DNA of 63,989 nucleotides, filler included, from Archaeoglobus sp. JdFR-37 (GTDB lineage Archaea; Halobacteriota; Archaeoglobi; Archaeoglobales; Archaeoglobaceae), in NCBI GenBank assembly GCA_002010215.1. It is 5 parts of 4 records of this genome, joined end to end, with 100 filler letters (N's around TTAATTAATTAA, not from the genome) between each part and the next. Parts side by side here need not be neighbours in the genome. Positions count along the whole stretch, not along the records: positions 15,196 to 44,655 come from MTMY01000040.1; 4 more parts are not named here. One strand, 5' to 3'. Positions within the stretch are counted from its first letter, which is position 1. Every line of letters begins with the position of its first letter. Shown here piece by piece: positions 33,001-42,000 of this stretch. Made by a program: the position numbers.

Positions 33001-36000
33001 TAAATCCGAGAAATTAGCCGTATTCAACCCAGAAAGATTTTAAACTTTAAAATATTTTTCAGGCCTTCTTTTTCTTTTTCAGAACCTCTTCCAGCCTCCT
33101 CTCAAGAGGCTCCTCGTGGGTGTATGGGCACATCAAATAGTGCTCTACAGCCTTTGCTATTGCATCCTTTGTTGCATTCTCTCCAGTCTTTTTCTTGAGC
33201 TCTTCAAGCACATCCTCTGGCAACACAGTCTGAGCATGAACAATCTTAACCATCTTTCCTCACCACCTATAATAATAATGAGTAAGGAGTATTAAAAGTT
33301 TTCTGGTCAGGAATAAAATTTTAGTAGCTGAAAAAATTATCTAATTTATATTTCTATAAATATCACAAATCATCAATAAGCTCTCTAAGCCAGGCAATAA
33401 CTGCATCTATCCTTTCATGTGTTGTCCCAAGGTAGTTTTCAGGTTGCAGCAGACTTTCAAGCTCTTCACGGCTGAAATACTTAGATATTCGTTCATCAGA
33501 CTTCAAGGCCTCCAGTAATGAAGTGTTTTTCTCGTAAGCCCTAAGGGATGCCTGTCTCAATATTTCATGAGCCTCCTGACGGGGTATGCCTTTTTTAGTG
33601 AGGGCAATCATAACTGTTTCACTCAAATTAAGTCCTTTCTGGGCTTCGAGATTTCTCTTTATATTCTCATAATTCAGCCGGAGCGTAGAGAGGACTTTTG
33701 CCATCTTAACAAGTATGTGATCCGTAAGTACTGAGGTTTCCACCAGAATTATGCGCTCAGCGGAGGAATTGGTAAGATCTCTCTCTTCCCAGAGTATGGA
33801 ACTCTGGTGCATGGGCTCCACGAACCCCCTGATGACTCTTGCAATACCGCATATCTGCTCGCTGTCTATGGGATTTCTTTTGTGGGGCATGGTGGAGCTT
33901 CCGACCTGCTTCTCCTCGAACTTTTCCATGAGTTCAGCAGTTTCAGCCCTTTGAAGGAGCCTTATGTTAGTGGCAATTTTCTCGAGAGTGGATGCAATGG
34001 CTGCAAGGAAGGAAACATACTCGATGTAGATGTCCCTTGGGATTATCTGACTGCTGATTGTCGCAGGTTTCAGGCCCAGAATTCTCATAACCTCTCTCTC
34101 TATCTCTAGACCATCCTTCCCGAAGGCAGCTTGTGTACCAACTGCTCCGCTCATCTGGCCCACAAGAATTCGCTTCTCCATCTCTTTCAGCCTTTCATAA
34201 TGCCTTCCCATTTCAGAGGCCCAAAGGGCAAAGCGAAAACCATAGGTTGTAGGCAAAGCTGCCTGACCATGAGTTCTGCCCAAACATACAGCATTTCTGT
34301 GCTCTTCAGCCAATCTAACAAGATGTCTGATTACCTCCTTTATTCTGACTTCCAACAACTTAAGGGAGTCGCGAAGCTGAAGTGCTGTAGCAGTATCGAT
34401 TATGTCATTTGAAGTGGCTCCAAAATGAACGAATCTACCAGAATTTCCTGCAACCTCAGTTATGGCTTTAACCAGAGCCATTATGTCGTGTTTTATCTCA
34501 TTTTCTATCTCTCTTACCCTGTCTGGCGTTATTCCTAGCACTTTCTTTTTTACCTCCTCTGTTTCTGTCTCATCAACATACCCCATTCTGGCGAGGGCTT
34601 TGAGCAGGGCTACCTCAACCCGGATCATTCTCTTGATCTTACTGTCCTCGCTCCAGATTCTCTTCATCTGCTCAGTTCCGTAGCGATAATCGATGGGGTG
34701 AACAATCATCAGAAAAGGATTGCAAAAAAGGTTTAAAAAACCTTTCAAAAGCTCAGACGGGAATCAACTTCCTTCACAGCATCTCTGACACAGAAGTACT
34801 CTCTTTTGACTTTCTTGAGGTATTTACATCTTTTTCCTGTGTACCCGGTGATACAGAGCTGGCAATCTTCTGGAAAAACCCTTTTTACGCCCAGTCCATA
34901 TTTTTCAGCCAGTATTTCGAGGACAGTCATCTCCCTCACCCCAAAGGGTTGTTAATTAATTTATCCTTTCTGGTTTTAAACGTATCCTTACTAAGTTTGC
35001 CTTTCAAGGAAATTAAGTTTATGTATCTGGTACCAGCACCAACATTCAATGAAGTTCAGGGTGACTGCAGAATTTGACGACGCCAAGACTGGCATCGTCG
35101 AAACAGACCACGGGAGCTTTGAAACTCCTGCGTTTATCCCTGTCGCTACCCTAGCTGCGGTCAGAGGACTTGATAGCAGAGATCTGAAGGACATGGGAGT
35201 AGAGGCTATAATCGCCAACACCTACCACCTGCATCTCAGGCCGGGAGATGAGCTGATAAAGAGAATGGGTGGTCTCCATAAGTTTATGGATTTTGATGGC
35301 CCCATAATAACCGATTCAGGTGGTTTTCAGGCTTTTTCCTTGGGTCTCGGTATGGAGCACGGAGTGGGGAAGATAGCGGATAATATTTTCCTAGAAGGGC
35401 TCAAAAATCCCGATTACAAGGGGGAGAAGTGGGCATTCGTTGATGACGAGGGAGTTACCTTCAGAAGTCCGCTTACCGGTCAGAGGGTGAAGCTCACTCC
35501 CGAAAAATCCATGCAGATTCAGTCCAACCTTGGATCCGATATAATATTCGCCTTTGATGAGTGCACCTCTCCGCTTTCAGACAAAGAATACACTGCTAGA
35601 GCAATGGAGAGGACCCATAGATGGGCTGAAATATGCTTAGAATGCTACGACAGAAGACAAGCTCTTTTTGGAATTGTTCAGGGTGGAGAGTATAAGGATT
35701 TGAGGATTAAATCGGCAGAGTTCATGGCCGAAAAAGAGTTTGCCGGCTATGGAATAGGCGGCTCCCTTGGCAAGAGCAAGAGAGACATGCTGAACATCCT
35801 AGAATGGGTCAATCCCATATTGCCTGAGGACAAACCTAGACACCTGCTTGGGATTGGAGCGGTGGAAGACATATTCAATTCCGTGGAGAGAGGCATTGAC
35901 ATGTTCGACTGCGTTTCTCCAACCAGATGGGCCAGGAGAGGGGTTCTGTTCATATCACCTCTTGAAGGTGGGAATGTTAGAAACAAATTCAGAATTCACA

Positions 36001-39000: not shown

Positions 39001-42000
39001 TTTCATCTACGCCGCAACCGCAACCCATGCAAGGCTGCGAGGTGTTGAGGCAGCATAACTTGGCCTGATCAGTTCCCAATCTGTCCAGCACGTTAAGGAG
39101 TGAGTCTTTCAAGCTGGTTTAGGGTTGCAACATTCACACCCATTCCCCTTACATCCTCTAAAAGCTTGGATGTGGGTTTTCCGTGATAGAAGATTACTGC
39201 TTCAGGTTTGCAATGCTCTACCATCTCTATCAAGCCTTTGTAGTCGAGATGATCGCTCACAACTATTCTCGGCAGTCTGTAAAACCTCTGGGCTGTCAGA
39301 ATATACTTTTTTCCGCTGTATTCGTAGATTTTCCTAGTGGTAGTGAGGTGCACATCTCCCTCCTTCGCCACTTCGATTCCAAAAAGCTTGCAGAGCCTAG
39401 TAATCCTTTCCTCTGCTGAGAAATCTATACCATTATCATTCAGCAATTTCCCAACCCTCTGGGCTTTCCCAACAGGATAAACACCATAAAATGACCCATT
39501 CGCCTCCTCTATAACTCTGTGGATTTCCTCATTGAAGATGTCAGCAGGACTCCCATATGTGGCCTCGCAAATCAGCACATCACACCTTGGCAAAGAAGAG
39601 TAGTCTTTAACATCTCCCGTTACCAGAATTCTGCTCTCAGATCTGAATAGAAAAGCTGCAGAGCCGTGCATGTGTAGTGTCTCGTGAGTGGAAACTTTGA
39701 TGCCGTCAAGTTCCAGTTTATCGCCTATCGAGAAAGTGTTGCCAGCAAACTTTTTGCCTGTAAGCTCCTCCAGTATTCTGGCTGTTTCATGAGACGCTAT
39801 CGCATTTCTATTTCTCACATTCCCTTTGCCGTAGTGGTCAGAGTGGGCATGAGTTATGATGTTGTAGCCCTTTTTTCCCCGAGATGAATCGATATGAAAC
39901 TCCGCTTCCCTGAACCTCAGGCTGAGATGAGGTTTTGTCAAGCTACCATGAGCTCTTCTAAAAGGGAAAAAACCGTATTGCTCGAGGAAATCAAGGGAAT
40001 GCATTACTCCTCCCTCTTCTTTTTAAAGCAGATCATGCAGTCCAGACATTTCTCGGGGATTTCCATGATGTAATCTGGGCTTTAAAATTGTATAAATCTT
40101 TTCTGCTGGGAATTTCAGGTTATCCACTCAACAGTTAAACAAATCAGAGATCGTTACCCAGCCATTGGGTTGTTAAAATGATTTTGGACGATGATTCTTG
40201 GATAAAATTCTGAATTTTCTGATTTAAAAGTATAAAGTTCCAGGATAATTTATATTAAATAGCAAACTATAAGTAACTTTGAAAACAATTATTACTGGTG
40301 ACAAATATGGAGTATGAAAAAATGGTAGTGCTGAGAGATGGAATACAAGTTAAAATAAGGCCTTTGAGGAAAGAAGACGAAGAATTGCTGGTGAAATTCT
40401 TTAAAAACCTTGACGTCAGCGATGTTATGTTTTTGATGGATGATGTTAGGAACGAAGAAGTCGTTAGAGAATGGGTCAGAGGATTGGATTACAACTGGGT
40501 TCTTCCCCTAGTTGCAGTTCACAATGCTGAAATAGTGGGTGATATTGCACTTAAGTTTTCAGGTAGAGAGAGGAGAAAACATGTAGCAGAGCTAACAGTA
40601 ACGATTGCCAGAGATTTCAGAGGCAAAGGTTTAGGGGCGGCGCTAAATGAGGCGGCAGAGGACATTGCGAGGCAAAAGGGGATAAGAAAACTAAAGTATG
40701 AAACGCCCATATCCAATGTCAGGGCTGTGATAAGTGCAGAACTCTGGGGATATACAAAAGAAGCTGTTCTTGAAAAGGAGTTTTATTCTCCTGTGGATAA
40801 ACTACTCCACGATGTTGTAGTTTTAACCAAATTCATACAGCCGGTTGAGGTCGAGGAAACTCCAGAGGTAATTGAGGAATTTCTTTAATTTTTAAATTTA
40901 TTACTTTTATTTTTTAATCCCATTTTACTTTTATTTATCTTTTAAAGAAGCCAGAAGTTTTGCTGAAAGCAAATCCGACTTCGTTCGCTCTAGGGATTGT
41001 CTCGCTGAATCCAACTTGAATCTTAAGCCTGGAGTAAGCTTGTCTGGGAAGCTGAAAGTTATGAGCTCGGCATAAATCTCCTCCATTATGTTCAGATACT
41101 TCTCAGCCTTCTCCACCTCACCTTTCCTCATTGAATCAAGAGAGAGGCGCCTCAACTCGCCAATCAGGTCAGCTAATCCTGTAAGGACAGAAGCGGGCTC
41201 CACTTCCAGCTCAATCTCCCAGAAGCTCTCACCACTCATAACCTTCATCAGGGCGTAAGCCTCTACCAGCTCCTGCATGGCGTCGTGGGTAATGGGATAA
41301 TATATCTCAGGGTATTTCTTGAATTCCACAACTTTTTCCAGAACTTCGATAGCTTTCTCAACGAACCGCTTTGCATCGTTAAGCTTTCCAGCATGAACCG
41401 CCATTACAGACTTGGTAGCATTTATTCTCATTTCTCTCGTGAGTTTCAGCAGCTCTTCTCTTGCCTTTTCCCTCTCCTCGAGGAATTTCCTGACATAGTC
41501 AAGCACCATCATTAGTCCTCCAGTATCGGTTGATGAATTTTAATTTACTTGAATTACTTCATTCACTTTAATCTCTCTCCAGCAGCACAACCCTGCTTAT
41601 CTCGGACTCATCAGCAATTCTGTATCCGGTAAGTCTGCTGAGCTCCTCTGAAAACTCTCTTACCTCCTGATGCTCCGGCATGGCATCCCTGCTCAGCCTC
41701 AGGCGAGAGTAGCCCAGATGCATGTAGGCTTTAGCCTCCACAAACGTGGGCTGGGATTTGATGATGTGCTCTGCAAAGTTCTCTGCCTTCATGTTCACAC
41801 CCTTGATGAGTGTAAGTCTTATAACTGTTCTACCATCCTTCTCTGAAAGAAGTTTAAGGCTCCTGAGGATTTTGTCCCATTCCTCTGCCTTCCCTCTGTT
41901 TATTGTGATATAGCTATCCCTGCTGTAAGCGGTGAGACTCACGTAGAGCTGGTATGGGTCGATGCCCTCAACCATTTCAGGCCTGGTGCCATTGGTTACA

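Follow-up and report, generated by a model that had tools for sequence, protein, structure and literature searches.

Gene content of the locus

The window (the whole stretch of DNA that was analysed, 63,989 nt including filler) from Archaeoglobus sp. JdFR-37 contains a gene for a tRNA-guanine transglycosylase (tgt) and two genes of the YhhQ family of transporters (QPTR), with the following features.

35049..36239, + strand: tgt, a short-loop (Chlamydia/Anaplasmataceae-subtype) tRNA-guanine(34) transglycosylase of 396 aa (TIGR00430)
35343..35441, + strand: insert after DSGGFQ in Tgt (residues ~99-131), at a position common to the bacterial short-loop subtype
35757..35774, + strand: base-pocket loop GGSLGK of Tgt (residues 237-242), with one residue fewer than GGLAVGE
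36247..36777, - strand: membrane protein of 176 aa, not assignable to a family, outside the module
36790..37272, - strand: DUF411 protein (PF04214), outside the module
37365..38066, - strand: yhhQ-A, QPTR transporter (TIGR00697/PF02592), co-distributed with tgt, putative queuine importer
38357..39058, + strand: yhhQ-B, second QPTR paralogue (TIGR00697/PF02592), putative preQ0 importer for archaeosine

The genome-wide survey's note had placed two YhhQ/Vut_1 genes downstream of tgt, and both are there, ~45% identical to one another. An operon of tgt and the two yhhQ genes was ruled out by orientation, tgt and yhhQ-A being convergent and yhhQ-A and yhhQ-B divergent. The two genes between tgt and yhhQ-A are unrelated; the membrane protein has no Pfam or NCBIfam match and falls in unnamed Atlas clusters, and among the loci screened this pair adjoins tgt only here (genome G000) and in G054. 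Contamination or recent insertion of the tgt locus was ruled out by archaeal-type neighbours (TYW1, purB), and the GC content of 0.43-0.47, compared with 0.448 genome-wide, also counts against both. The presence of tgt orthologues in single-contig genomes likewise counts against contamination.

An intact G34-type transglycosylase

The full-length bacterial-type Tgt described in the survey is a 396-aa ORF that scores 532 bits against TIGR00430 (cut-off 306.75). Scores below cut-off for the arcTGT model TIGR00432 (138 bits, cut-off 350) and the DpdA model NF041059 (26.6 bits, cut-off 200) ruled out an arcTGT paralogue or DpdA as its identity. The catalytic and zinc motifs reported earlier (DSGG, FDEC, DMFDC and CxCxxC...H) are all present; the counterparts of Asp102, Asp156, Gln203, Gly230 and Asp280 are D89, D170, Q211, G238 and D287, and the zinc ligands are C334, C336, C339 and H365. 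The catalytic, zinc and Arg293/Arg296 residues are invariant across 59 Tgt homologues. Reference residue numbering was taken from PMC5699537. The predicted fold matches that of Z. mobilis Tgt with a TM of ~0.86 (structure model and PDB search), and dN/dS relative to the G054 orthologue is ~0.04. The gene is thus intact, encodes an enzyme of the G34 type and evolves under purifying selection; the protein would act as a homodimer.

It is quite improbable that tgt is a relic, or that its product acts on another RNA position or on DNA, or uses a base not yet described. Such a reading would accommodate the absence of tgt from 38 of the 92 Archaeoglobaceae genomes, the additional, disrupted tgt copies of G083 and G084, and an insert with no known role. 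However, it is opposed by the low dN/dS, the invariant residues and the DpdA score, and neither a PUA-type extension of Tgt nor, among the ORFs scanned, any dpd neighbours were found.

Loop and insert as marks of a bacterial subtype

The altered pocket loop noted in the survey reads GIGGSLGK where Z. mobilis Tgt has AVGGLAVGE, and the canonical GGLAVGE/GGLSVGE loop with Val233 and Glu235 is absent. GGSLGK recurs in 118 of the 121 nearest proteins (GGFLGK in the remaining three), and all 121 have Cys at position 158; Tgt itself keeps both Cys158 (FDEC) and Gln203 (VQGG). The insert, previously given as ~30 aa, measures ~27 aa: the span between Asp89 and Phe138 (which opens FRSP) is 49 aa, versus 22 in E. 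coli Tgt. The equivalent span is 40 aa in Chlamydiota and 38-75 aa in 67 full-length bacterial short-loop copies. In the predicted model the insert is a low-confidence part (pLDDT <50 at residues 98-125).

That these motifs extend to other archaeal families was confirmed, since 14 of 20 non-Archaeoglobaceae copies have the short loop and insert, the other six being canonical. The proposal that loop and insert are a novel archaeal remodelling had to be abandoned, as the same pair marks a bacterial subtype of Chlamydia and Anaplasmataceae. A GTDB motif scan, in which 73 of 80 named loci among the matches listed were bacterial, ruled out an archaea-specific pocket; because the motif was itself the selection criterion and the count covers the matches listed, the scan yields no frequency for the subtype. 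In a sample of small-genome Chlamydiota chosen without use of the motif, loop and insert occur in all 15 Tgt copies examined, and 12 of these 15 have an adjacent yhhQ. The subtype is also found in Ehrlichia, Wolbachia, Dependentiae and others, and its marks (GGSLG loop, insert after DSGGFQ, HLLGIG) are all present in Tgt.

All 35 short-loop copies from Chlamydiota have Leu158, and such copies read DEL and HGG where archaeal Tgt has DEC and QGG. Tgt has Cys where the strict BL-TGT definition (PMC12301720) calls for Leu158, while at Gly233 of that definition HMMER aligns Leu or Gly depending on the template, through gap placement. GGSLG is no literal match to the pattern GG[LS][AS]G published in PMC11570991. 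In a tree built with insert and motif columns removed and two long-branch canonical rows left out, 48 short-loop Tgts split from 13 canonical ones at 84/99; when included, both of those rows fall within the short-loop group (85/99). Clade support for the short-loop group in these alignments is moderate (UFBoot 84).

Distribution of tgt and its partners

tgt is present in 54 of 92 Archaeoglobaceae genomes, and a search found queA in none of the 92 (the positive control matched in 9 of 14). Across the phylum, queA lies adjacent to tgt in all six genomes with a canonical-loop Tgt and was found in none of 14 with a short-loop Tgt. Among the 92 genomes, tgt and yhhQ-A are both present in 53, both absent in 35 and discordant in four. 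Genomes within one genus are not independent, so that Fisher P values for co-distribution overstate significance; counts by genus were relied on, and the majority state of the two genes agrees in 17 of 18 genera. In 18 of the 53 genomes carrying both, the two genes converge and lie no more than 3 kb apart. No association of tgt with QueC was seen across the 92 genomes (both 41, tgt only 13, QueC only 31, neither 7), nor with QueF-family genes, which occur in 8 of 54 tgt-positive versus 22 of 38 tgt-negative genomes. On the favoured reading, tgt and yhhQ-A are of bacterial type, old in Archaeoglobi, and kept or lost together by genus. Cultured organisms are among the carriers, with Tgt homologues assigned to A. 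fulgidus, A. sulfaticallidus and Geoglobus.

Among 48 bacterial short-loop genomes, 36 gave no QueA-family match. Five have a full-strength QueA, four of them with a second, canonical tgt beside queA, and eight combine a QueA-family match (weak in seven) with only a short-loop Tgt.

Transporters and archaeosine genes

The survey had both YhhQ proteins accompanying Tgt, which holds for yhhQ-A (agreement in 88 of 92 genomes) but not for yhhQ-B, found in 23 genomes with tgt and 17 without. Service of both to Tgt was ruled out by genome co-distribution and the YhhQ tree. In this tree, YhhQ-A groups with bacterial tgt-adjacent YhhQ (support 97/95) and falls outside the Chlamydia YhhQ clade; the yhhQ genes of its clade mates lie next to a short-loop tgt, in Rickettsiales/Holosporaceae-labelled, Bacteroidota and Acidobacteriota records. 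YhhQ-B lies in a separate clade (99/98). Among genomes at least 90% complete, non-A YhhQ occurs in 15 of 16 QueC-negative versus 23 of 55 QueC-positive ones. Given its independence of tgt and its higher frequency in genomes that lack QueC, YhhQ-B is probably the preQ0 importer for archaeosine; YhhQ-A, which is co-distributed with tgt, would import queuine. Archaeal YhhQ has been assumed to serve archaeosine only, and QPTR specificity determinants are listed as still to be identified (PMC5372724).

The assembly, which is 94.5% complete, has archaeosine and preQ0 genes of its own, as the survey reported: QueC and, elsewhere in the genome, an arcTGT (TIGR00432, 611 bits, cut-off 350) that reads GGVVP in its pocket. 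An ArcS-like gene adjacent to arcTGT scores 337 bits (cut-off 440), with 356 of ~571 aa scanned. QueA, QueF, QueH and QueG, earlier listed as missing, were not found in this genome either, the best QueG match reaching 67 bits (cut-off 200). The gene pattern of direct queuine salvage (tgt and QPTR without queA, queG or queH) is therefore present, QueG and QueH having been searched in this genome only. A search for Qng1 (PF10343) was blank here and also in all controls. Genes for tRNA-Asn, -Asp and -Tyr with U-G-U were found, and a tRNA-His gene was not found in the 94.5%-complete assembly. Our literature search found no data on tRNA modification (Q34) or on queuine import for this system.

Candidate bases for G34

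Queuosine is described from bacteria and eukaryotes and is said to be missing from archaea. Direct queuine salvage by C. trachomatis was reportedly described by Yuan et al. in 2019. PMC11570991 and PMC12301720 link the short-loop subtype to queuine and, with PMC11130926, describe use of queuine by C. trachomatis Tgt and QPTR. The survey's inference from the loop to preQ0 is therefore not supported, the same loop and insert belonging to this subtype, while its G34-type transglycosylase in archaea, YhhQ importer partner and lack of downstream queuosine enzymes stand. Queuosine-pathway genes have already been published for 34 archaeal genomes (PMC8204110); Archaeoglobi are absent from the 15 K00773 rows of that paper.

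We favor, with a probability of about 0.6, insertion of salvaged queuine at G34 of archaeal tRNAs. Because a Tgt of the queuine-scavenging subtype and a matching importer are present, Archaeoglobus sp. JdFR-37 probably puts queuosine into some anticodons. YhhQ-A would take up queuine that nearby bacteria release as the free base, and homodimeric Tgt would put this base in place of G34 in tRNAs that read U33-G34-U35 (those for Asp, Asn, Tyr and His). Insertion would give mature queuosine in one step, which would make QueF, QueA and QueG/H dispensable. The shortened GGSLG loop may, like its counterparts in Chlamydia and Anaplasma, leave space for the cyclopentenediol side chain; for the Anaplasma loop, PMC11570991 gives 4.0 A left to modelled queuine. 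YhhQ-B and QueC would supply preQ0 to a separate arcTGT/ArcS archaeosine (G15) route.

In favour of queuine count the loop and insert common to the 15 Chlamydiota Tgts, queuine use by C. trachomatis, the split of short-loop from canonical Tgts in the tree, the lack of queA, the co-distribution of tgt with yhhQ-A but not with QueC or QueF-family genes, the low dN/dS and the tRNA genes with U-G-U. Several observations count against queuine: Cys158 and Gln203 are kept, unlike in Chlamydiota; the nearest DEC-bearing members of the subtype (Anaplasmataceae) are only predicted queuine users; Val233Gly alone does not give Z. mobilis Tgt queuine turnover; YhhQ-A stands apart from Chlamydia YhhQ; the loop register is ambiguous, and GGSLG departs from the published pattern; support for the short-loop clade is moderate; genomes of one genus are not independent; and 8 of 48 bacterial genomes pair a QueA-family match with a short-loop Tgt only.

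It is because Tgt keeps Cys158 and Gln203, unlike Chlamydia, that preQ1, or preQ0 and archaeosine, at position 34 retain some probability. Import of salvaged preQ1 by YhhQ-A, with preQ1 as the final modification at G34, or a relaxed specificity for preQ1 and queuine like that of Bartonella henselae, is rather unlikely. Cys158 favours preQ1 (PMC3074131 and PMC3660597), and in Z. mobilis Tgt the Val233Gly exchange retains preQ1 affinity and is alone insufficient for queuine turnover (PMC3660597). The tRNA of B. henselae, which has tgt and QPTR alone, contains traces of preQ1; yet the Bartonella loop is the canonical GGLAVG, and the loop of archaeal Tgt is the one modelled as queuine-permissive (both in PMC11570991). 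Moreover, Glu235 of the preQ1 peptide switch (PMC3660597) lacks a clear counterpart in Tgt.

We regard as unlikely the survey's idea that own or imported preQ0 is placed at G34, with a possible further step, through ArcS/RaSEA, to wobble-position archaeosine. The cell makes preQ0 (QueC), and bacterial Tgts accept this base. The Z. mobilis Tgt-preQ0 complex 2qii is among the PDB search matches of the Tgt model, and ArcS needs no tRNA shape or sequence and acts even on the preQ0 nucleoside (PMC11298593). Nevertheless, tgt tracks a dedicated second transporter and neither QueC nor YhhQ-B, the Val-Val pair of preQ0-specific arcTGT (PMC5699537) is missing from the Tgt pocket, and the loop is standard in Chlamydiota, where the transporter of C. 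trachomatis accepts queuine but not preQ0 (PMC11130926). Quite unlikely, too, is a reading in which Tgt short of queuine would take the cell's own preQ0 and position-blind ArcS/RaSEA would yield wobble archaeosine, so that the supply of a bacterial micronutrient would decide whether the anticodon has Q34 or G+34 (or preQ0-34), in tRNAs with G+15 as well.

If queuine is indeed the substrate, more than half of Archaeoglobaceae and some Methanothrix-related methanogens would build a micronutrient of bacterial origin into their anticodons, and two 7-deazaguanine routes would run in one cell with one importer each. As cultured carriers exist, the presence of Q34 in archaea is directly testable. The YhhQ-A/YhhQ-B pair in one genome offers a natural contrast for QPTR specificity, and the Cys158/short-loop Tgt a test of which residues permit queuine turnover.

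Comparison with known systems

The closest known counterpart is C. trachomatis Tgt with QPTR, which shares the short GGSLG loop, the insert after DSGGFQ, HLLGIG, tgt and yhhQ without queA, and the same side of the Tgt tree. Archaeal Tgt differs in Cys158 and Gln203 (Leu and His in Chlamydiota), a ~9-aa longer insert and 36-40% identity; its host has its own preQ0/archaeosine route, and yhhQ-A is convergent or unlinked and outside the Chlamydia YhhQ clade. The tgt-only Anaplasmataceae (Anaplasma, Ehrlichia, Wolbachia) share GGSLG, DEC, QGG and the insert, and searches for QueA in Ehrlichia and in two Wolbachia genomes gave no match. Their Tgt is 42-43% identical and forms a separate sub-branch, and their queuine salvage is predicted from a model in PMC11570991. 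The canonical bacterial Tgt of the QueF-Tgt-QueA-QueG/H pathway (E. coli, Z. mobilis) has the same fold, catalytic Asp, zinc site, Cys158 and Gln203; unlike the Tgt described here, canonical copies, including the archaeal ones of PMC8204110, have a GGLAVGE-type loop, no insert, and a place beside queA (6 of 6 archaeal canonical copies). arcTGT (TIGR00432), of the same superfamily and encoded by a separate copy in this genome, differs in its 24% identity, GGVVP pocket, C-terminal extension and action at position 15.

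The tgt locus

The window joins pieces of contigs C7, C21, C33 and C52 across N runs, and order across these joins is uninformative. The tgt locus lies on contig C21 of an archaeal genome (1.97 Mb, 94.5% complete), and the closest named homologues of the stretch are from Archaeoglobales. The locus includes:

35049-36239, + strand: tgt, 396 aa; TIGR00430 at 532 bits (cut-off 306.75)
36247-36777, - strand: 176-aa membrane ORF with a CPLC motif; no family
Downstream of tgt and before yhhQ-A, - strand: DUF411 gene
37365-38066, - strand: yhhQ-A transporter, TIGR00697
38357-39058, + strand: yhhQ-B transporter, TIGR00697

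The bacterial-type Tgt and two YhhQ transporters described in the genome-wide survey's note were thus confirmed; with other models the tgt product reached 138 bits (arcTGT, cut-off 350) and 26.6 bits (DpdA, cut-off 200). A separate arcTGT (611 bits against 350), adjoined by an ArcS-like gene that was scanned in part, and QueC are also encoded. QueA, QueF and QueH were not found in this 94.5% complete assembly and the top QueG match was just 67 of 200 bits, in line with the absences that the note had listed. Look-alikes of the 36247-36777 protein in the Atlas form unnamed clusters, ~60% archaeal. Between the two yhhQ genes, a 40-aa ORF (38183-38305, +) has two zinc-ribbon-like CxxC motifs and a GGAGG site ahead of it.

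Integrity of the enzyme and tRNA genes

Tgt is intact and under selection. The catalytic and pocket residues of Z. mobilis Tgt (numbering from PMC5699537) align with D89, D170, C172, Q211, G238 and D287, and those of its zinc site with C334/C336/C339/H365. All were invariant across 59 aligned homologues. The AlphaFold model (pLDDT 86; TM ~0.86 to Z. mobilis Tgt) has its low-confidence part in the insert, and comparison with a same-genus orthologue gave dN 0.056 and dS 1.39. Broken or partial extra tgt copies (G083:C7:8155-9047 and G084:C10:27493-28311, in two comparison genomes) each accompany an intact tgt.

Genes for U33-G34-U35 tRNAs comprised tRNA-Asn, -Asp and -Tyr; tRNA-His was not found in the 94.5% complete assembly. 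An ARAGORN tRNA-Tyr call (G000:C34:2829-2928) was reassigned to tRNA-Asp(GUC) because its loop reads CUGUC and it contains an intron; the true tRNA-Tyr, also with an intron, is on C41.

The pocket type in bacteria

By sequence, the unusual pocket, a GGSLG-type loop plus an insert after DSGGFQ (short-loop), belongs to a subtype already known in bacteria. Scanning GTDB for GG[S/T/C]LG-x23-HxLGI yielded at least 119 matching stretches. Among the matches listed, 80 were titled (73 bacterial, 7 archaeal), with bacterial holders in Chlamydiota, Ehrlichia, Wolbachia, Holosporaceae, Dependentiae, Solirubrobacterales, Thermotogota and Desulfobacterales. The insert was present in each of the 67 full-length bacterial copies among these matches (6 partial copies left out), with an Asp89-to-Phe138 length of 38-75 aa; E. 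coli Tgt has 22 aa there and the JdFR-37 enzyme 49. Independently of the motif, 61 Chlamydiota genomes were sampled and 60 scored; 59 of the 60 had Tgt, and the 45 loci read comprised 35 short-loop copies with the insert and 10 canonical ones (GGLAVGE-type loop, no insert). The proposal of an archaeal remodelling therefore fails against the 73 titled bacterial matches listed and 35/45 Chlamydiota loci. In small-genome Chlamydiota, GGSLG[K/R] occurred in 15/15 copies and yhhQ lay within 1.5 kb of tgt in 12/15.

GG[LS][AS]G is reported as typical of queuine-salvaging Tgts, C. trachomatis salvages queuine, and modelled queuine sits 4.0 A from the Anaplasma GGSLG loop (PMC11570991). Gly233 and Leu158 mark Chlamydia-lineage BL-TGTs (PMC12301720), and C. 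trachomatis QPTR is described as transporting queuine, neither preQ0 nor preQ1 (PMC11130926). Four free-living bacteria (G131, G133, G135, G137; L185-L193) carry a stand-alone short-loop Tgt plus a canonical Tgt beside queA, which suggests that synthesis and salvage run in parallel there.

Once the insert and the two motif regions had been taken out of the alignment, 48 short-loop and 13 canonical Tgts split with support 84/99. Two added long-branch canonical rows were placed within the short-loop group, so short-loop monophyly, judged from this alignment, is probable rather than secure. A 100/99 clade united Archaeoglobi with a Methanothrix-containing group, surrounded by Chloroflexota, Thermotogota and Desulfobacterales sequences.

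Loop type and queA

Among 301 Halobacteriota genomes sampled, 52 had Tgt, 20 of these outside Archaeoglobaceae (14 short-loop, 6 canonical). Outside that family, canonical Tgt adjoined queA in 6/6 genomes, versus queA in 0/14 short-loop genomes. The six canonical GGL[C/S]IGE genes (L230, L231, L236, L239, L240, L245; families f5, f30, f32) lie directly at queA and constitute a second, separate archaeal route to queuosine, matching that reported in PMC8204110.

As a bacterial control, 50 of the 80 titled loci were searched (48 bacterial short-loop genomes and 2 archaeal, among the matches listed). QueA-family matches occurred in 12/48 of these bacterial genomes; five were strong, four of them in genomes with a second, canonical tgt at queA. 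The remaining eight QueA-positive genomes had the short-loop Tgt alone, which argues against a strict short-loop/no-queA rule, with 7/8 matches weak.

Co-distribution in Archaeoglobaceae

Among 92 genomes, tgt was present in 54, YhhQ-A (at least 59% identity) in 56, YhhQ-B in 40, QueC in 72 and QueA in none.

Co-occurrence with tgt (n=92): both; tgt only; partner only; neither
yhhQ-A: 53; 1; 3; 35
yhhQ-B: 23; 31; 17; 21
QueC: 41; 13; 31; 7

The lone genome with tgt and no yhhQ-A is 73% complete, and the majority states of the two genes matched in 17/18 genera; by coordinates, 18 of the 53 genomes with both had a convergent pair no more than 3 kb apart. No link of tgt with yhhQ-B or QueC was found in the 92 genomes. 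At completeness of at least 90%, a non-A YhhQ occurred in 15/16 QueC-negative versus 23/55 QueC-positive genomes. In trees, YhhQ-A clustered with bacterial tgt-adjacent YhhQs (97/95), apart from Chlamydia YhhQs, and YhhQ-B formed its own clade.

PF14489 (QueF) matches occurred in 30/92 genomes, not including JdFR-37 (22/38 tgt-negative versus 8/54 tgt-positive). At two loci read (L301:1486-2214 in G068; L300:991-2244 in G058), a nucleoside 2-deoxyribosyltransferase-like domain precedes a fused QueF domain that exceeds the cut-off of the QueF-II model TIGR03139, with an HD hydrolase adjoining or fused; this unit is possibly a 7-deazaguanine nucleotide recycling module.

Proposed function and comparison with known systems

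Most likely, YhhQ-A would bring queuine into the cell and Tgt would place it at G34 in a single step, while YhhQ-B and QueC would supply preQ0 for arcTGT; we infer both substrate and position. The chief doubt on the queuine reading is that the archaeal enzyme retains Cys158 and Gln203, positions occupied by Leu and His in Chlamydiota. Cys158 favours preQ1 (PMC3074131; PMC3660597), which speaks for preQ1 salvage, a reading we consider unlikely. The Val233Gly change is not enough by itself for queuine turnover (PMC3660597), and the loop register is ambiguous in the alignment to Z. mobilis Tgt. That preQ0 or archaeosine occupies position 34 seems rather improbable; it would accord with ArcS working irrespective of tRNA shape (PMC11298593).

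The main value of the queuine-import reading is that the archaeal queuosine question becomes testable in cultured strains. A QueA-linked route has been published for 34 archaeal genomes with queuosine genes (PMC8204110), Archaeoglobi not being among its 15 K00773 rows, and archaeal YhhQ is regarded in PMC5372724 as preQ0 salvage only. In the literature searched, which excluded subscription journals, we found no account of archaeal direct queuine salvage or measured Q34. The system type is already known from bacteria; new here are the division between two YhhQ paralogues across the family and, inside one phylum, the contrast in queA between the two loop types.
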